Assembly (NCBI GenBank): GCA_046329495.1
Contig: JAXLUO010000018.1
Coordinates: forward strand, 15,045-79,044
Direction: 5' to 3'
Source of the DNA: Chitinophagales bacterium
GTDB taxonomy: Bacteria; Bacteroidota; Bacteroidia; Chitinophagales; LD1
Length of the DNA stretch: 64,000 bases
Below the pieces are notes generated by a model. It was not told the DNA's origin, ran no database searches, and was given only the letters and a program-made list of their open reading frames with translations. Of the stretch, positions 847-63,116 are shown one piece after another. A program made the position numbers and the translations under genes. Every line of letters starts with the position of its first letter. The first letter of the stretch is position 1.

Positions 847-3768
847 ATGGTTGCAGGGGTATTGCTAAATCAATATCCTTGCCGCCCCCTAAAAAGGGCA
901 GCAGCAACTATGAGTCAGAGCTTTTTATTGATAAACCCCGATGGCCTTGTATTTCAAACCTATTACGATGTATTCCGCGTAATACATAACCGTAAAATCA
1001 ATAACAAGCCCAGTTATCAGTTCGATTCGCTGATAACCCAGAACATACGCCTCATATATCCCGGTGGAACGGATAAGAACATTATCGAGTTGCTTAAAAG
1101 TCTGGACTCTGCCAATCTTAAAAACGAACTGACAAAGCTTACCAAAATACATGGCAAGCAAAAAAGTGGCATATCGCTTGATACGTATATGGCGCGTTCG
1201 GCGCCGCGTATTTTTTATGAATTATTGAGTCGTTTAGCAGCCGTTGCGCACGAACTCAAACTATATCACCGTTTAAAGAATAAGGAAACAGGAAACTATA
1301 AAGTAGCGCCCTGCACCCTATCTAACATAAAACCTGTGCTATCGTTTCGCTTGTTCAAAACAGCACAGAATGAATTAGCTATAGCCCCACAAATTACCAT
1401 AGCAGGACAAACCTCGCCAATGGAGGATTTTAACGGCACTACGTTTTTGTTGGAAAAGGACAGCGTGTATTATCTCCTGTCCATGAAGGATATGCAAACG
1501 CTGGATTGGTTGATTCGTGCAAGACCTGAACAGTATAAAAACAACGCCGAAGCCTTTACCAACGAGATTGTTTCGGTGCTGGAAAGGGATTACGAGGTTA
1601 CCAAGGACGAAGTATTTAAAATAAACCTGGTAGAAAGCGAACCGCAACATGCTGTTTACCTGAGCGAGATAAGCGACACCTTCCTGATGTTTACACCGCG
1701 TTGGAATTACGAAGGCTTTTTGATAGAAAGTCTTGACCAACCCGAAACAGAGGAAATGCGCCGTGGAGAAATTTATAAAGTGGTGCGCCGTAAGGAAGAA
1801 GAATTGGCCTTTGTTGAAAAACTGCGCGGCTTGCACCCGAACTTCGAGAAACAACGCAACGGCAACTTTTACCTCAGTTTTGATGAGGCTAAAAAGAAGC
1901 ACTGGTTTTTGAAAGTGTATCAGCAATTGTTGGCCGAGAATGTGCAGATAGTAGGCATGGACTTATTAAGCCACTTCCGCTATTCGCCGCACAACATCCA
2001 CACGCAGATGAACATCGGCAGAACAGTGGATAGCCTGATGCACTTAAACATCCGCATCAGCTTTGGCGATGAACAAGTGGAGCTGAGTGCTGTGCAACGC
2101 ACTTTGTACAACGGACAAAAGTTCATCCTGCTTAAGGATAATAGCATTGGTGTGATAACCGATGAGTGGTATGATCAGTACGGGGCCATCTTTAAACATG
2201 GCAAGTTGCAAAAGGGAGAGTTGATAGTGCCACAATGGATATTGCTGAGTATTGAAGAGAGGTATCAAACCAAGGAACTTAAACCTGTTATCAGCGAGCA
2301 ATGGTGGAAAGACTGGGAGCGCTGGCAAACAAGCACCGAACCTATGGTGCCTGTGCCTGCAGGTTTACAGGCTACGCTCCGCCCCTATCAGCAAAAAGGC
2401 TTTGAATGGCTGGTATTGTTAAGCAATATTGATGCAGGCGCTTGTTTGGCAGATGACATGGGTTTAGGTAAAACCCTGCAGACTATTGCCTTCCTGCAAC
2501 ACCAGACAAACCTAAAACCAAATGCACGCCATTTGATCGTTGCACCACTGTCGTTAGTATTTAACTGGAAACAGGAATTGGAAAAGTTTGCCCCCGGTTT
2601 GGGCCTATATGTTTTCCACCAAAACAACCGCGATGTGCAAGAGTTCACAGCCTCAGGCAAACAGGTAATGATCACCAGCTACGGAACCGCTCGTTCCGCT
2701 ATGGAAGAGTTGAGTTTGATTAGCTGGGATACTGTGGTTATTGATGAGAGCCATAACATCAAAAACCCAACCGCGCAAATAACCAAGGCTGTATATAAGC
2801 TAAGCGCAGTTAACCGCATTGCATTAAGCGGTACACCGGTAATGAACAACACGTTCGATATATACTCGCAATTAAACTTCCTGCTGCCCGGCTTATTGGG
2901 CGGACCGGAATTCTTTAAACGTGAATACGCCATACCTATCGATCGCGATATGAATATGGACAAAACGAATGCGCTGCAAAAAATCACAGCACCTTTCGTA
3001 TTGCGACGCACCAAAAAGCAGGTAGCAGCCGATCTGCCCGATAAAACAGAATCGGTTATATGGTGTCAGATGGATGAACCGCAGAAGGAAGCGTACGAAG
3101 CCATCAAAAAACAAATCAAGTCCAACGTATTCCTCGATATTGAACGCGATGGTTTTACTAAAGCCAAGTTCTCTATCCTCCAGGGTATACTTAAGCTACG
3201 GCAAATCTGTTGTGCGCCATCCTTATTGAAGGACGAGGAGATCACAACAAAAGACTCCATCAAAATGGAGATGGTAATGAACGAGCTGCGCGATAATGTA
3301 AGCGGAAGTAAATCCCTCGTATTCTCGCAATACCTGGGCATGCTTGAAATGATTGCACAACAATGCAAGAAGGAAAACATACCTTATTTGTACTTTGACG
3401 GCAGCACACCATTAAACGAACGCGCACAAATGGTTAACACCTTCCAGGACGAGAATTCTGATGTGCGCGTGTTTCTTATCAGCCTAAAAGCAGGTAATGC
3501 AGGTTTAAATCTTACAGCCGCCGAATATGTTTTCCTGATGGACCCATGGTGGAACAACGCCGTGGAGCAGCAAGCTATTGACCGCACCCACCGCATTGGC
3601 CAAACCAAAAATATTTTTGCTTACAAGCTTATCTGCCGCAATACCATCGAAGAAAAAATACTGGAACTACAGCAGAAAAAGCGGCAGCTATCTGAAGATC
3701 TGGTTAGCGAAGAAGAAGGTTTTGTAAAACACCTTACGCAGGAAGATATCACCTTCCTGTTCGATTAA
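847..3768 (+). CDS. SNF2-family DEAD/DEAH helicase with a long uncharacterised N-terminal region (about 500 aa)
   Basis: Motifs LADDMGLGKTLQTIA (Walker A), VIDESHNIKN (DExH) and QAIDRTHRIGQTK (motif VI). An alternative start is at 910 (MSQSF). Confidence 0.9.
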   Translation: MVAGVLLNQYPCRPLKRAAATMSQSFLLINPDGLVFQTYYDVFRVIHNRKINNKPSYQFDSLITQNIRLIYPGGTDKNIIELLKSLDSANLKNELTKLTKIHGKQKSGISLDTYMARSAPRIFYELLSRLAAVAHELKLYHRLKNKETGNYKVAPCTLSNIKPVLSFRLFKTAQNELAIAPQITIAGQTSPMEDFNGTTFLLEKDSVYYLLSMKDMQTLDWLIRARPEQYKNNAEAFTNEIVSVLERDYEVTKDEVFKINLVESEPQHAVYLSEISDTFLMFTPRWNYEGFLIESLDQPETEEMRRGEIYKVVRRKEEELAFVEKLRGLHPNFEKQRNGNFYLSFDEAKKKHWFLKVYQQLLAENVQIVGMDLLSHFRYSPHNIHTQMNIGRTVDSLMHLNIRISFGDEQVELSAVQRTLYNGQKFILLKDNSIGVITDEWYDQYGAIFKHGKLQKGELIVPQWILLSIEERYQTKELKPVISEQWWKDWERWQTSTEPMVPVPAGLQATLRPYQQKGFEWLVLLSNIDAGACLADDMGLGKTLQTIAFLQHQTNLKPNARHLIVAPLSLVFNWKQELEKFAPGLGLYVFHQNNRDVQEFTASGKQVMITSYGTARSAMEELSLISWDTVVIDESHNIKNPTAQITKAVYKLSAVNRIALSGTPVMNNTFDIYSQLNFLLPGLLGGPEFFKREYAIPIDRDMNMDKTNALQKITAPFVLRRTKKQVAADLPDKTESVIWCQMDEPQKEAYEAIKKQIKSNVFLDIERDGFTKAKFSILQGILKLRQICCAPSLLKDEEITTKDSIKMEMVMNELRDNVSGSKSLVFSQYLGMLEMIAQQCKKENIPYLYFDGSTPLNERAQMVNTFQDENSDVRVFLISLKAGNAGLNLTAAEYVFLMDPWWNNAVEQQAIDRTHRIGQTKNIFAYKLICRNTIEEKILELQQKKRQLSEDLVSEEEGFVKHLTQEDITFLFD

Positions 3769-40629: not shown

Positions 40630-40847
40630 TTTAAACCAAAAAAATTCTTTGCGTCTTTGTGTAAACCGCTTTTTTAATCGATTTAACACAAAAATCGCTC
40701 ATATGAATTTTTCTGTAACTTGTGCACAAGCTGAAAAGTGCACAAGCATGCACAAGTAGCTGTGGATAACCCCGGACTCTTCTGGCCTCCCATCAACGTT
40801 AAAAATACACTGCAAAACAGCCAATTAAGCGCAACGCTGCATTTTCA

Positions 40848-40874
40848 CCCCCTCTTTGCGAAGCAGAGAGGGGG
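40848..40874. other. Strong GC-rich hairpin (12 bp stem, 3 nt loop) with no T-tract
   Basis: ccccctctttgc gaa gcagagaggggg, one mismatch. Confidence 0.6.
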
Positions 40875-41080
40875 CCGGGGGGTGAGTCGAGGGCAAACTG
40901 GCTATCGAGAACACACCTACGGGGAACGAGGAACAATCCTGATTCAGCATTCTAAAATCAAAAATCCGTAATGATAGGCTTGATAGGCCTTTACGTGCAA
41001 CCAATCAATCCCTATCATTCCCAATCAAAAACTATCAAACCCTATCATAACTGTAAAACAGCAAGCCATCCATCTAAAGG

Positions 41081-41400
41081 TGTAACCTTTTTCAAAAAAT
41101 AAAACAACTCCGGCATCCTTGTATTTATCTGTGTATTATGTGCAATCGGTGGTTAACTGTATTTCAACCTTTAACTACCGCGCCAATCATAAAAATCTGT
41201 GTTTCTCTGCGTTCCATTAAAAGCGTGCCCCCTAATTCAATGTAACCTTTTCAAAAAAATAAAACAACTCCGGCATCCTTGTATTTATCTGTTTTAATCC
41301 GTGCAATCTGTGGTCAATTGTATTTCAAGCATTAAATACCGCGCCAATCATAAAAACCTGCGTTCATCTGCGTTCCATTGTATTACCCACCCATTCTCTA
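41081..41400 (+). repeat. Tandem repeat, 2 x about 160 bp, in the leader of the lipid operon
   Basis: gtaacctttt at 41082 and at 41242. The units share aaaataaaacaactccggcatccttgtatttatctgt and ccgcgccaatcataaaaa.ctg.gtt..tctgcgttccatt. Confidence 0.8.
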
Positions 41401-41475: not shown

Positions 41476-43128
41476 ATGCAAGTAATAGACATACACCCCG
41501 ATTGGTGGAAGTGGGGCACTGCCGAAAAACGCAAGGCCCTAACCGATTATCCGAATCTGAAAACACATCTGGAACAACGTTGGAACATCGGCTTAAACAC
41601 CCGTCGCGATGAGCCCGCCAATTTTCCGGTACTAGCCAATGCCGATAACGCAAACAAACTGGAGATACTCTTTGGTCAGTTCAACTTTACAACAAAGGCC
41701 GATACCCGCTTAATTAAAAGCCTGGGCAAAAGCTATAAGGACCTTTTGTTTTCTGTTACCCGCACGGCTGTGCGTGTGGTGGATGGTGTGGTCTATCCGC
41801 AGAATCACGAGGAAATACAGCGTATTTTAGAGATTGCTTCGCGCGAAGGCGTGCTGGTAATGCCGTTCGGCGGTGGCAGCAACGTATGCGGCGATTTCGA
41901 TTTACCGGGTGCCGATGCCCGCCCCCGACTGGCTATGGACATGGCGAAGATGAATACCCTGCTACACCTCGATAAGGTAAACCACAAGGCCACCTTTCAG
42001 GCAGGTATTTATGGTCCGGCGCTGGAGCAAATGTTGAATGCACAGGGCTTTACCCTGGGTCATTTCCCGCAATCGTTTGAATATTCAACTCTCGGCGGTT
42101 GGGTGGTAACCCGCAGTGCAGGACAGGAAAGTTCCGGTTATGGTCGTATAGAAGATATTGCCATTGCAATAAAGGTGGCCACACCCACAGGCACCCTGCA
42201 AACCAGTAGTTACGAAGGCGACGCCGCCGGGGTGAACCTGAAAGGATTATACTTTGGCAGCGAAGGCATGTTTGGCGTAGTAACGGAAGTTACGGTGCGT
42301 ATCCATCCCCTGCCTAAAACAAAACAATGGGCTATTGCCTTATTCCCTAACTACCAAAGCGGGTTGAATGCGCTGCAAAGTTTAGTGCAGCAAAACATCT
42401 TCCCTACCGTTGTGCGCTATAGCGATGAGCACGAAACATTCTTTCTATCGCTGCTTTCGCACGAAACACCGGGCTTTGTTACCAACATAAAAGCAGCAGT
42501 AAAAAGCGCGGTGCTTAAATGGAAGAAGCTGGAGCAAGGCTGCATTATGATGATACGTTTTGAAGATGATTGTGGTGAAGATTGTCCGAAGTTGGAAAAA
42601 GCAAAACGCGCCTTTAGCGATAACGGTGCTATGCTGTTAGGCGATGCACTGGGCAAACGTTGGGAAACCAGCCGCTTTGGTTTGCCCTATTTGCGCGATG
42701 ACATGATGTTGCGCAATGTAGTGGTTGATACCATGGAAACCGTAGTACCCTGGAACAAAATTGACGAGTTGCGCAAAAAACTGCGCCTGGCTTTGGATAC
42801 CTGCACAGCCTTTCAAAATCAGCAGGGCATCCTGTTGGCGCATGTATCGCACGTATATACCAGTTGCGCCAGCATTTACTTTACCGTACTTACACCTATG
42901 CAAACAGGTAACGAAATGAACCAATGGCGCGAGATAAAGAAAACCGTAACCGATACGATTGTGAACAATGGTGGAGCAGTATCGCATCACCATGGCGTTG
43001 GTAAGGACCACCAGCCCTGGTATCTGCAAACTACCGATGAAGTAACCAAGCGCATTTTGCAAAGTGTAAAACAGGCTGTTGACCCGGCCAATATTCTTAA
43101 CCCCGGCAAGTTGTTCGATGAAGCGTGA
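41476..43128 (+). CDS. FAD-linked oxidase, alkyl-DHAP synthase (AGPS)-like
   Basis: 550 aa. PCMH-type FAD-binding domain (VVYPQNHEEIQRILEIASREGVLVMPFGGGSNVCG) and a C-terminal FAD-oxidase domain (HHHGVGKDH). Confidence 0.8.
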   Translation: MQVIDIHPDWWKWGTAEKRKALTDYPNLKTHLEQRWNIGLNTRRDEPANFPVLANADNANKLEILFGQFNFTTKADTRLIKSLGKSYKDLLFSVTRTAVRVVDGVVYPQNHEEIQRILEIASREGVLVMPFGGGSNVCGDFDLPGADARPRLAMDMAKMNTLLHLDKVNHKATFQAGIYGPALEQMLNAQGFTLGHFPQSFEYSTLGGWVVTRSAGQESSGYGRIEDIAIAIKVATPTGTLQTSSYEGDAAGVNLKGLYFGSEGMFGVVTEVTVRIHPLPKTKQWAIALFPNYQSGLNALQSLVQQNIFPTVVRYSDEHETFFLSLLSHETPGFVTNIKAAVKSAVLKWKKLEQGCIMMIRFEDDCGEDCPKLEKAKRAFSDNGAMLLGDALGKRWETSRFGLPYLRDDMMLRNVVVDTMETVVPWNKIDELRKKLRLALDTCTAFQNQQGILLAHVSHVYTSCASIYFTVLTPMQTGNEMNQWREIKKTVTDTIVNNGGAVSHHHGVGKDHQPWYLQTTDEVTKRILQSVKQAVDPANILNPGKLFDEA

Positions 43129-59078: not shown

Positions 59079-59825
<747 letters not shown>

Positions 59826-59832
59826 AATTTAA

Positions 59833-60088
59833 ATTTTAATGGAACACAGATTTTTTATGATCGTTATGATTGATCAAGATCTATGTTTTTAAATACAGTT
59901 GAATATACTTTTCGTTTTATAGCCGGCTTTTTGCCGAAGTTCAATAATAACCCTACTTCAATTTTAATGGAACACAGATTTTTTATGATCGTTATGATTG
60001 ATCAAGATCTATGTTTTTAAATACAGTTGAATATACTTTTCGTTTTATAGCCGGCTTTTTGCCGAAGTTCAATAATAACCCTACTTCA
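59833..60088. repeat. Perfect tandem duplication, 2 x 128 bp
   Basis: 59833-59960 is identical to 59961-60088, read base by base. Each unit holds the left TIR and the last 32 codons of the GxxExxY gene. Confidence 0.9.
59864..59960 (-). pseudogene. Duplicated 3'-terminal fragment (32 codons) of the GxxExxY gene
   Basis: Lies in the first copy of the 128 bp duplication. No start codon or upstream coding sequence. Confidence 0.7.
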
Positions 60089-60402
60089 ATTTTAGTAGCC
60101 CTAAGGTAATTCAGAAGCTGTGCTTCGTGGTCTTCACCTATTGCTTCTGCTGCTTTCAACTCAACTATAACGCAATCATTTACCAGCAAGTCAGCAAAAT
60201 AAACACCTACTTCCTCCCCCTTATAACTCACATTCACCGGTTGCTGGGCCTGCACCTTCCATCCCATTTGCTTCAACTCAACAACCAGCGCATTTTCATA
60301 TACTTTCTCAAGAAAACCGTAACCCAATGTATTGTATACCTTATAATAGGCCTGAATGATAGCTTCTGTAACATCAGCATGTTTGTAGTTATCAGCAGCC
60401 AT
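59992..60402 (-). CDS. GxxExxY protein (PD-(D/E)XK-like, PDDEXK_3 family)
   Basis: GFLEKVY is the GxxExxY signature. DLLVNDCVIVELK carries D..ExK. 136 aa. Confidence 0.8.
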   Translation of the reverse strand: MAADNYKHADVTEAIIQAYYKVYNTLGYGFLEKVYENALVVELKQMGWKVQAQQPVNVSYKGEEVGVYFADLLVNDCVIVELKAAEAIGEDHEAQLLNYLRATKIEVGLLLNFGKKPAIKRKVYSTVFKNIDLDQS

Positions 60403-60464
60403 TTCCTACAGTTTACATCGGACCAGCGTTTTTCATAATCATCTTAACAAATCAGCGTTCCATT

Positions 60465-62402
60465 TTATTTATAAGAACGTACCTGCAATTGAACGTTTTC
60501 AAATTCCAGTGGTTCTTTATGCAGCACAGGTTCTTCGCCTACGCCTTTAAATTCCCAGGCAGCAGCATAGCGGAAGTTTTCGTCATCGCGCTTTGCTTCG
60601 CCCGCGTCCTGATATTCCACACGGAAGTGACCACCGCAACTTTCGTTACGGTGTAAGGCATCGGTAACCATCAGCTCGCCCAGTTCAATAAAGTCGGCTA
60701 CACGGCCCGCTTTATCTAACTCAGGGTTAAAGCTGTTGAACTCACCCAATACTTTTACATCCTTCCAGAAGTCTTCGCGCAGTTGTTTCAGCAAGCCTTT
60801 TGCTTTGGTTAAGCCTTCGGCGGTGCGGGCCATACCGCAGTATTCCCACATAATCTTTCCTAACTGCTTATGGAAACTTTCTACTGAGGTTTTGCCTTTA
60901 ATATTCAGCAGTTGGTTCATGCGGTCGCGGGCATTTTTTTCTGCCTCCACAAACGCAGGATGGTCGGTAGGTATAGCTTTGGTAAAGATTTCGCTGGCCA
61001 GGTAGTTACCAATGGTGTAAGGGATAACGAAGTAACCATCGGCTAAACCCTGCATCAGTGCCGAAGCACCTAAGCGGTTAGCGCCGTGGTCGCTAAAGTT
61101 AGCTTCGCCCAGTGCATAGCAGCCGGGGATGCTGGTCATTAATTCGTAATCAACCCAAAGGCCACCCATGGTGTAGTGCACGGCAGGGTAAATCTTCATT
61201 GGGGTTTGCAGCGGATCGTCGTTTGTGATGTTTTGATACATCGGGAACAACTCGCCGTAGCGGGCTTTCACAACATCGATACCCAAACGCTTGATGGCAT
61301 CGCTAAAGTCAAGGAATACCCCGAAACCGCTTGGTACAATACCACGGCCTTCGTCGCAAACTTCCTTAGCGGCACGCGAAGCGATATCGCGCGGGCAAAG
61401 GTTACCGAATGAAGGGTATTTACGCTCCAGATAGTAGTCGCGGTCATCTTCGGCAATGTCAGCAGCTTTCTTCAAGCCTTTGCGGATTGCTTCGGAATCT
61501 TCTTTCTTTTTAGGCACCCATACACGGCCGTCGTTACGCAGCGATTCCGACATCAGCGTCAGTTTCGATTGATAGTCGCCGGTTACCGGAATACAGGTAG
61601 GGTGAATTTGGGTATAGCAAGGGTTACCGAAGTAAGCGCCTTGTTTGTGGGCCTTCCAGGCGGCTGTTACGTTGCTGCCCATGGCGTTGGTAGAAAGGTA
61701 GAATACGTTGCCGTAACCACCGGTGCCTAACAACACAGCGTGGCCAAAGTGTTTTTCCAGCTCACCTGTTACCAGGTTGCGGGCAATAATACCACGGGCC
61801 TTGCCATCGATGATTACCAGTTCCACCATTTCGTGGCGGTTATACATCTTAACATTACCCAGGCCGATTTGACGCTCTAATGCCTGGTAAGCACCCAGCA
61901 ATAATTGCTGACCGGTTTGACCACGGGCATAGAACGTACGCGATACCTGGGCACCACCGAATGAACGGTTATCTAACAGGCCGCCGTATTCGCGGGCAAA
62001 AGGTACGCCCTGTGCAACGCACTGGTCGATAATATTAACCGATACCTCGGCCAAGCGATATACGTTGCCTTCGCGGGCACGGAAGTCGCCGCCTTTGATA
62101 GTATCGTAGAACAAACGGAAAACAGAGTCGCCGTCGTTTTTATAGTTTTTAGCGGAGTTAATACCACCCTGGGCCGCAATTGAGTGCGCCCGGCGTGGCG
62201 AATCCTGAAAGCAAAACGCTTTTACCTTGTAACCCAACTCGGCCAGGGTTGCTGCAGCCGAAGCCCCGGCCAAACCGGTGCCCACCACAATAACTTCCAG
62301 TTTACGCTTGTTGGCCGGGTTAACCAGTTTTGCGTGTTCCTTATAATGGGTCCACTTGTCGCTAAGAGGGCCCGAAGGGATTTTAGAATTCAGTTCAGCC
62401 AT
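60465..62402 (-). CDS. sdhA: Succinate dehydrogenase/fumarate reductase flavoprotein subunit
   Basis: [15 protein letters not shown] motif, the covalent-FAD region [10 protein letters not shown], and the HYTMGG and GANRLG blocks. 645 aa. Confidence 0.95.
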
Positions 62403-62447: not shown

Positions 62448-63116
62448 TTATTTTACTAAACCAAAAAACATGCTGATGGGCATAAGAGCAAACACCACCG
62501 AGATAAGCACCGCAAAGCCGGCACCGATAAGCTCGATAGCGCGGTTATATTTCAGGTGATTGAAGCCCAGTGTTTGGAAAGCACTTTTAAAGCCGTGCAA
62601 CAGGTGCCAGAATAAGGAGAAGCAACCTGCCACATACAGCAACACCATTGGTAGGGATTGGAAATGCTCCTGCATGCGCTGGAACAGGTTCAATTCCTCG
62701 CCGGTAGCAAACTGGCTGTAACGGTTAGGGATCCAGAAGTTAGAGGCGTGGATAATAAGGAACAACAGGATTAAGGTACCCAACAAGCCCATGCTACGCG
62801 AATACCAGCTACTGTTGGCAGCAGGATTGTTGTAGCTATACTTAACCGGACGGGCAGCGCGGTTTTGCGCCCACAGCATCAGGCCATCTACAATGTGCAC
62901 CAGAAAGCCTGCTACCAGCACCAATTCCATAGTGCGGATAATGAGGTTGGTACCCATAAAGTGCGCCCAGTGCGAAAAGGTTACGCCCCCGTCGTTAAAC
63001 CAAATCATGCCGTTGATGGTGGCATGCACAATAAGGAAGGTTATTAGGAAAAGACCGGTTAAGCTCATGAAGAACTTTTTACCGATGGAACTCTTGAAAA
63101 TCACCGAATTGGCCAT
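62448..63116 (-). CDS. sdhC: Succinate dehydrogenase cytochrome b subunit (b558 family)
   Basis: 222 aa with 5 transmembrane helices and conserved His residues. First gene of the C-A-B order typical of type B enzymes. Confidence 0.85.
   Translation of the reverse strand: MANSVIFKSSIGKKFFMSLTGLFLITFLIVHATINGMIWFNDGGVTFSHWAHFMGTNLIIRTMELVLVAGFLVHIVDGLMLWAQNRAARPVKYSYNNPAANSSWYSRSMGLLGTLILLFLIIHASNFWIPNRYSQFATGEELNLFQRMQEHFQSLPMVLLYVAGCFSLFWHLLHGFKSAFQTLGFNHLKYNRAIELIGAGFAVLISVVFALMPISMFFGLVK

Follow-up and report, generated by a model that had tools for sequence, protein, structure and literature searches.

A GxxExxY gene and its arms in the sdhCAB operon

We analyzed a stretch of 64,000 nucleotides (nt) from a Chitinophagales bacterium (contig JAXLUO010000018.1, positions 15,045 to 79,044), referred to below as the window. 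It carries an sdhCAB operon in which the sdhA stop codon and the sdhB start codon are 639 nt apart; at 70 related metagenomic sdhA-sdhB junctions, the spacer measured 101 nt or less in 57 cases. The spacer in the window is filled by an insert with one intact GxxExxY gene, which is co-oriented with the operon, encodes 136 amino acids (aa), and is bracketed by terminal inverted repeats (TIRs), here called arms. Such an insert had been proposed from the letters of the window alone (the original prediction), and the 639-nt spacer and the domain matches of the gene product bear this out. The insert appears to be a member of a huge, apparently undescribed GxxExxY gene-plus-TIR family that is present in many phyla.

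The GxxExxY protein was recognized by PF13366 (PDDEXK_3) with an E value of 5.9e-43 (146.4 bits; cutoff, 22) and by TIGR04256 with 143.4 bits (cutoff, 35). Its motif reads G29-F-L-E32-K-V-Y35, and the residues E32, D71, E81, and K83 were invariant in an alignment of 42 sequences. A confident AlphaFold model (predicted local distance difference test score, 82.7) showed an alpha-alpha-beta-beta-beta-alpha-beta topology, which may correspond to a minimal restriction-endonuclease-like core. Foldseek returned only weak, generic PD-(D/E)XK neighbors (1y88, AdnAB, an alkaline exonuclease, and a splicing endonuclease). A PDB sequence search matched no solved structure and no solved homing enzyme. No match was obtained with the PADLOC defense models or with PHROG, and no transposase domain of the DDE, HUH, serine, or tyrosine type was detected, PF13366 being the only domain found.

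The upstream arm begins at the base following the sdhA stop codon. It is composed of the head TGGAACGCTGAT and subsequent 9- to 10-nt units with GAT ends. When it was aligned to the repeat at 59838-59869 in inverted orientation, 26 of 32 nt matched. The alignment score was 37, and the highest score among 20 shuffles was 20, which rules out a chance inverted repeat. Thus, the 32-nt repeats and the 26 matches of the original prediction stand, with the upstream arm located at 60433-60464 and not at 60434-60465. The core motif AATGGAACRCWGATTT occurs four times in the window (0.25 expected).

The downstream side of the insert is more complex than it had seemed. We detected a 128-bp tandem duplication (59829-59956 and 59957-60084, 99-100% identical), which contains the last 41 GxxExxY codons and the 3' arm, so that two 3' arms are present. 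The joint of the duplication is a TAAAATT microhomology. The repeat at 59838-59869, formerly taken for the left end of the element, is indeed a repeat arm. It is, however, part of the distal copy in the duplication and not the element end; the true partner of the 5' arm is the proximal 3' arm (Table 1). The same insert and the same duplication were found in L001, a metagenomic contig of the same species (99% identical), with two substitutions in the distal copy. Thus, the duplication predates the split of the two strains.

The distal 3' arm stops 12 nt short of the sdhB ATG. Since the cassette fills the whole sdhA-sdhB spacer in sense orientation, it is most likely transcribed and translated within the sdhCAB mRNA. 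Neither an alternative sdhB promoter nor a cassette promoter was recognized by the promoter scan used, which omits Bacteroidota promoters. Expression of sdhB presumably depends on read-through of the cassette.

The window was also searched for related features. Exact-sequence look-ups of its own proteins gave no match, and Rfam revealed neither a known RNA family nor rRNA when applied to the window and to 18 related loci. A weak tblastn match at 42937-43005, considered as a second GxxExxY gene, proved spurious; it is located within an FAD-oxidase gene.

Table 1. Features of the sdhCAB locus and of a repeat region elsewhere in the window
Feature	Position	Strand	Remarks
sdhC-like membrane subunit, first gene of the operon	62448-63116	-	weak PF01127 match, below cutoff
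sdhA, flavoprotein subunit	60465-62402	-	PF00890 and PF02910; stop codon 60465-60467 directly against the 5' arm
5' arm (upstream terminal inverted repeat)	60433-60464	-	AATGGAACGCTGAT TTGTTAAGAT GATTATGA
Leader, 30 nt, from the 5' arm to the GxxExxY ATG	60403-60432	-	
Intact GxxExxY / PD-(D/E)XK gene, 136 aa	59992-60402	-	PF13366, TIGR04256
Proximal 3' arm	59966-59997	-	TCATAACGATCATAAAAAATCTGTGTTCCATT; overlaps the GxxExxY stop codon; genuine counterpart of the 5' arm
Distal copy of the 128-bp tandem duplication	59829-59956	-	41-codon gene fragment and second 3' arm
41-codon GxxExxY fragment in the distal copy	59867-59989		83% identical to residues 96-136
Second (distal) 3' arm	59838-59869	-	'left TIR' of the original prediction
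A/T-rich spacer, 12 nt, ahead of the sdhB ATG	59826-59837	-	AAAATTTAAATT
sdhB, iron-sulfur subunit, downstream of the cassette	59079-59825	-	
Two 160-bp direct repeat units	41081-41379	+	87-96% identical; no GxxExxY gene

Arm and gene are one evolutionary unit across phyla

A scan with one genome per species yielded 80 GxxExxY loci, in which the protein was 55-70% identical. They originated from Bacteroidota, Ignavibacteriota, Chloroflexota, Acidobacteriota, Planctomycetota, Nitrospirota, Thermodesulfobacteriota, Armatimonadota, and others. For each gene, the upstream flank was aligned to the reverse complement of the downstream flank, and the result was compared with 20 shuffles. A flanking inverted repeat that beat all shuffles was detected at 65 of 84 GxxExxY genes, which represent about 10 phyla. 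Both arms share one consensus, consisting of a terminal TRGAACRCNGAT head and approximately three further 9- to 10-bp units with GAT ends. Aligned at their outer ends, the arms read aaTRGAACRCnGAT, followed by approximately three GAT-terminated units of 9 or 10 nt. The 5' arm terminates 0-50 nt ahead of the ATG, and the 3' arm often extends across the stop codon. The arm consensus of the sdh locus recurs around GxxExxY genes in many phyla.

The variable arm positions diverge together with the protein (Mantel r 0.38; 0 of 500 permutations), showing that the repeats are tied to the gene and do not represent a purely local stem. Host base composition was rejected as the source of arm similarity, because the guanine-plus-cytosine (GC) content of the arms follows that of the host flanks only weakly (r 0.36); the corresponding value for gene GC and host GC is r 0.87. 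Open reading frames (ORFs) for four-helix-bundle proteins (TIGR02436/PF05635) likewise lie between short repeats arranged as inverted arrays. The sequences of these arrays, however, are unrelated and element-specific, even where such an ORF shares its operon with a GxxExxY cassette. Since the GxxExxY arms are distinct from the four-helix-bundle arms and are found family-wide, arm and gene form one unit and not a generic hairpin, and they have evolved as such across phyla.

The positions of the cassettes resemble that at sdhA-sdhB. In 58 of 73 loci, both neighbors are co-oriented with the GxxExxY gene, and the upstream neighbor is co-oriented in 72 of 81. The 5' head lies at a median of 3.5 nt past the upstream stop codon (-3 to +9 nt in 33 of 48 cases), and the 3' head lies at a median of 13 nt ahead of the next start. 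Further junctions were found between nuoJ and nuoK, in a polysaccharide operon, and in a helicase/methyltransferase operon. Thus, the cassettes fill short intercistronic spacers. From this position and orientation, we infer that GxxExxY cassettes are expressed by read-through. Gene GC was on average 9.2 points below that of the flanks; in the window, the values are 38.7% for the gene and 50.2% for sdhA plus sdhB. This deficit fits long-resident selfish DNA.

Intact GxxExxY copies are under purifying selection. The ratio of nonsynonymous to synonymous substitution rates (dN/dS) was approximately 0.08-0.09 where it could be computed, dS being saturated elsewhere. At 50% identity, the family comprises 16,518 clusters. 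Some representatives (P0241-P0245 and P0260) are 250-273 aa long and have two GxxExxY domains; they are either genuine fusions or cassettes in tandem that are read as a single ORF. In the literature searched (8.3 million papers), GxxExxY, PDDEXK_3, and PF13366 were named in approximately five papers altogether, the name GxxExxY appearing three times. These papers treat neither mobility nor flanking repeats, and biochemical data on nuclease activity were not found; curation texts and papers outside the search may differ.

Decay of the cassette and gene-less hairpins

In the nearest clade (SdhB 81-92% identical), the sdhA-sdhB junction is occupied in three ways. It harbors the GxxExxY cassette in the window, L001, L163, L083, L165/166, L179, and L182, a four-helix-bundle cassette in L086 and L185/186, and an 8-nt spacer alone in L085 and L122. 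The latter two are empty sites of the kind for which the original prediction had suggested a comparison of relatives; target-site duplications, also named there, did not exceed chance in a family-wide test (see below).

Three loci with an identical SdhB (P0129; 91% identical to the SdhB of the window) form a decay series. In L182, the cassette has a frameshift and a premature stop. In L184, the ORF was lost by internal deletion, while the arm sequences are kept in a 115-nt spacer. In L183, a GTTCTAT trace is left in a 34-nt spacer, and this near-empty site looks like a secondary deletion. An independent frameshift was found in the close relative L179 (P0122), the SdhB of which is approximately 92% identical to that of the window. 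The decay at identical SdhB indicates that the GxxExxY gene is not required for the operon, and the deletion in L184 shows that gene-less arm pairs can arise from full cassettes. Thus, the cassettes decay by frameshift and internal deletion to hairpins of approximately 85 nt, and then to near-empty sites.

Gene-less hairpins are also found near family genes, as anticipated by the original prediction, which had spoken of MITE-like copies (miniature inverted-repeat transposable elements). Within 3 kb of 80 genes, we detected 31 head-to-head arm pairs that lack a gene. They are 79-149 nt long (mostly 83-87 nt) and fold into long hairpins in which single mismatches recur at regular intervals (z, -3 to -8). 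Tandem arrays of such hairpins adjoin the gene in L076, where 114-nt units are repeated 6.9 times, and in L057, and in L076, the GxxExxY gene lies within the loop of one array unit. Where a contig has paralogues, these are most similar to one another (82% identity in L020 and 89% in L063). In L076, one arm additionally contains 7.8 tandem copies of the 19-nt sub-repeat CAGATTTACACAGATTGAG (3473-3620), showing that arm units expand by slippage.

The window has a further repeat region, which consists of two 160-bp direct repeat units (Table 1). The units end in motifs similar to the 3' arm (41186-41218 and 41347-41379; ...AATCATAAAAAYCTGYGTT...TCTGCGTTCCATT), and ATC/GAT-phased short repeats adjoin them at 40999-41051. 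Position 41186-41218 had been named as a TIR-only copy. It is not a TIR pair but the single 3'-arm-like end of one unit. The units may be cassette remnants related to its 3' end, although their sequence similarity to the sdh cassette spans only approximately 70 nt. The 128-bp duplication and the 160-bp units both fit a tendency to local duplication. At 40840-40895, the window additionally contains the GC-rich hairpin ccccctctttgcgaagcagagaggggg ccggggggtgag, which resembles hairpins at sdhA-sdhB in other Bacteroidota (for example, L089, L093, and L132) and probably represents a further family of dispersed palindromic repeats.

Further inserts were observed at the sdhA-sdhB junctions of relatives. 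Those in L086, L090, L131, L134, L161, and L185/L186 contain four-helix-bundle ORFs ('23S IVS protein', PF05635/TIGR02436; IVS, intervening sequence), framed by inverted arrays of 7- to 8-nt tandem repeats that are mutually unrelated. Gene-less hairpins of 80-135 nt, made of short tandem repeats such as GAGATGT, AGTATCA, or AAAGTC, are located at this junction in L100, L101, L104-L106, L108, L112, L114, L116, L120, L129, L158, and L159. The junction seems to act as a hot spot for palindromic inserts in general. Two single observations concern neighboring DNA. In L182, the locus with the frameshift and the premature stop, an IS110-family transposase gene (2168-3163) lies just downstream of sdhB. 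L164 (437-570) encodes exactly the protein that in L163 lies downstream of sdhA (P0035), followed by approximately 130 nt of noncoding sequence and then by a gene without a match to SdhB; it may represent a second site or a rearranged operon.

Interpretation of the cassette and known systems

We favor, with some reservation, the reading that the insert is a rarely mobile, IVS-like selfish cassette that is expressed by read-through of its operon. A selfish element had already been suggested for this locus. The empty sites, the decay series, and the GC deficit agree with that suggestion, and classical transposition is unsupported.

A possible course of events starts from the arms. A conserved inverted array of similar 9- to 10-bp units with a fixed head suggests protein binding sites, and most simply the units would be bound by the encoded nuclease. 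The enzyme would then bind the phased GAT units of its own arms and cut at or near the arm heads. Repair of the break by recombination or copying could duplicate the cassette locally or convert hairpin-only sites, and new operon spacers would be colonized rarely. In the transcript, the paired arms might provide a processing site of the RNase III type, by which the insertion would be made harmless, as for IVS. 

Several results weigh against this reading. The nuclease identity of the GxxExxY protein is predicted from sequence and model, and its activity on the arms and its binding to them are putative; no solved structure is closely related to it, the top Foldseek match being 1y88 with a probability of 0.97 and a template modeling (TM) score of 0.46. 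No clear flanking inverted repeat was detected at 19 of the 84 GxxExxY genes. A gene of use to the host would also be compatible with the strong purifying selection and the long retention. The cassette at the sdh junction looks old, being shared by several related lineages, and its inheritance looks mostly vertical. Signs of movement were scarce as well. Flanking direct repeats in 55 elements were equal to a shuffled-partner control, so that no target-site duplication emerged. Two abundant exact variants (20-22 contigs) were each found at a single site, the cassette was absent from 50,697 phage records, and plasmid carriage was rare (8 of 72,556 records). Finally, the arm data demonstrate neither an RNA-stem role nor precise arm pairing. 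Mismatches between the arms were G.U in 94 and A.C in 83 cases (p = 0.45), revealing no RNA bias, and the similarity of arms within an element was 0.63 in register and 0.54 out of register (0.38 between elements).

Some related observations belong here. TAAAAT in the window and ATAAGA in L002 had been considered as target-site duplications and were rejected, because the family-wide test equals the control. In the minimum-free-energy RNA fold, the 5' arm pairs with a 3' arm (z = -5.9). The N of CNGAT showed no covariation between the arms. The GxxExxY copy of the window is 62-69% identical to those of related lineages, and its leader differs by eye. Orthology of the cassettes in the window and in L083 was considered and rejected, since the copies are 69% identical, are no closer to each other than to copies at other junctions, and are not reciprocal best matches. 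The sdh-junction cassette may go back either to one old insertion or to a later replacement.

The rarely mobile selfish cassette could be part of something larger. It is conceivable, though on our analysis rather doubtful, that the family constitutes a new autonomous class of mobile elements. Each element would encode a single protein, a PD-(D/E)XK nuclease of approximately 125 aa, which would recognize TIRs made of four phased 9- to 10-bp GAT units. The elements would colonize the spacers between operon genes in at least 10 phyla and give rise to REP-like palindromes (REP, repetitive extragenic palindrome) of approximately 85 nt; by analogy, they would also explain the origin of the 23S rRNA IVS that carry the four-helix-bundle protein S23p. 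In such a class, movement would proceed without target-site duplication and by a mechanism unrelated to transposition by DDE, HUH, or recombinase enzymes.

Among the alternatives, a module of benefit to the host fares best, and we still consider it unlikely. It assumes that an intercistronic stem is cleaved by RNase III and tunes the sdhCA:sdhB ratio, and that the nuclease aids, for example, repair or defense. For IVS, excision by RNase III has been proven (PMC4990558). The sense orientation within operons would suit such a role, as would the unrelated gene-less hairpins found at sdhA-sdhB in many other taxa, but close relatives with 8-nt spacers show that the operon needs neither the gene nor the stem. 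Similarly, the strong purifying selection and the long retention at the junction are to be set against the loss of the ORF by frameshift, stop, or deletion in strains with identical SdhB. The predicted RNA fold closes the cassette and the hairpin units are stable; however, there is no excess of G.U over A.C mismatches, and it is the arm sequence itself, beyond its pairing, that is conserved across phyla and tied to the gene. The GC deficit is typical of selfish DNA, and no defense model of PADLOC was matched.

That the cassette is a classical cut-and-paste TIR transposon, with the GxxExxY nuclease acting as transposase, is less probable still. Its conserved TIRs with subterminal repeated units, its ends of the TG/TA...CA/TA type, its MITE-like gene-less derivatives, and its copies at many genomic junctions are all reminiscent of such transposons. 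Target-site duplication, however, was no better than in the shuffled control, identical copies at different sites were not found for the two exact variants traced, and there was no phage and almost no plasmid carriage. The protein has no known transposase fold or domain past the minimal 125-aa PD-(D/E)XK core. The extreme bias for co-oriented intercistronic positions also argues against a transposon, although selection might yield the same.

Least probable in our view is a free-standing homing endonuclease gene, the product of which would cleave the center of pre-existing, independently spreading, REP-like GAT-repeat hairpins of approximately 85 nt, and which would be copied into their loop via arm homology: it would account for the gene in L076, which occupies precisely the loop of one unit, the unit being elsewhere gene-less and repeated 6.9 times, for the 31 gene-less units near genes, and for presence/absence polymorphism between conserved genes without target-site duplication, and PD-(D/E)XK homing enzymes such as I-Ssp6803I exist, but the sole transition observed directly runs the opposite way (L184, a deletion derivative), no empty hairpin of the GxxExxY arm type was found at sdhA-sdhB in 70 relatives, the protein has no sequence similarity to solved homing enzymes, and the spread of the hairpins themselves would be left unexplained.

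Taken together, the conserved arms, the lodging in operon spacers, the decay to palindromic repeats, and the niche shared with the S23p cassettes of 23S IVS make a single testable system of two families of 'hypothetical proteins' and one class of intergenic hairpins. For initial biochemical work, the TRGAAC-(N5GAT)n arm is available as a defined substrate, either DNA or RNA. Annotation calls for caution, because operons that would otherwise be contiguous, such as sdhCAB and nuo, are split by the cassettes.

Compared with known systems, the cassette has partial counterparts in several. With insertion sequences (IS) and MITEs, it shares TIRs with subterminal repeats and short gene-less hairpin derivatives. 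Unlike IS, it is only approximately 500 bp long, and neither a transposase of the DDE, serine, tyrosine, or HUH type nor a target-site duplication was detected; multiple identical copies were not found for the two exact variants traced. It is like free-standing homing genes (phage seg/mob and I-Ssp6803I, a PD-(D/E)XK homing enzyme) in being a small co-oriented nuclease gene between conserved genes, with presence/absence polymorphism, a cycle of gain, decay, and loss, and no target-site duplication. In contrast to homing genes, only the cassette has TIRs and gene-less palindromic derivatives, and a sequence relation to I-Ssp6803I or other solved homing enzymes was not detectable.

In REPtrons and TIRtrons, tyrosine transposase genes (RAYT or TIRYT) are flanked by REPs or TIRs, and read-through expression has been proposed (PMC3733652). 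As in REPtrons, a single small gene of nuclease type is bracketed by inverted palindromic repeats, and gene-less copies occur, dispersed or in tandem, at intergenic transcribed positions. The differences are (i) a PD-(D/E)XK protein instead of a HUH/Y1 transposase, (ii) arms that start with TRGAAC and have no GTAG tag, and (iii) arms built as arrays of 9- to 10-bp units, whereas a REP is a single palindrome of 20-40 bp. In addition, RAYTs are usually single-copy per repeat family, whereas GxxExxY genes are present in multiple copies on single contigs and form a huge family.

The closest precedent is the 23S IVS of Leptospira, Coxiella, Salmonella, and others (PF05635/TIGR02436), of which the cassette is not a member. 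In the 23S IVS, an ORF lies in the loop of a stem formed by 28-bp inverted repeats, RNase III cuts the element out, the ORF can decay, and the origin is unknown (PMC4990558). The arms of the Coxiella IVS consist of tandem GACAGAT heptamers in variable copy number (PMC4990558). The GxxExxY cassette differs in its site, an mRNA operon spacer instead of helix 25 or 45 of 23S rRNA, and in its cargo, a predicted PD-(D/E)XK nuclease instead of S23p. RNase III excision is a feature of IVS; for the cassette, a stem is predicted, without enrichment of G.U pairs. The arm consensus of the GxxExxY cassettes is conserved across phyla, unlike the four-helix-bundle arms seen here. Both systems have a small, promoterless-looking ORF (approximately 120 aa in IVS) in the loop of a terminal-repeat stem, with short tandem repeats in the arms, ORF decay, and a position in a host transcript, which for the cassette follows from its placement in the operon. 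They also share a niche, since four-helix-bundle cassettes are located at the same sdhA-sdhB junction in other Bacteroidota. The GxxExxY cassettes may open a way to the origin of IVS elements, a question that is 30 years old.

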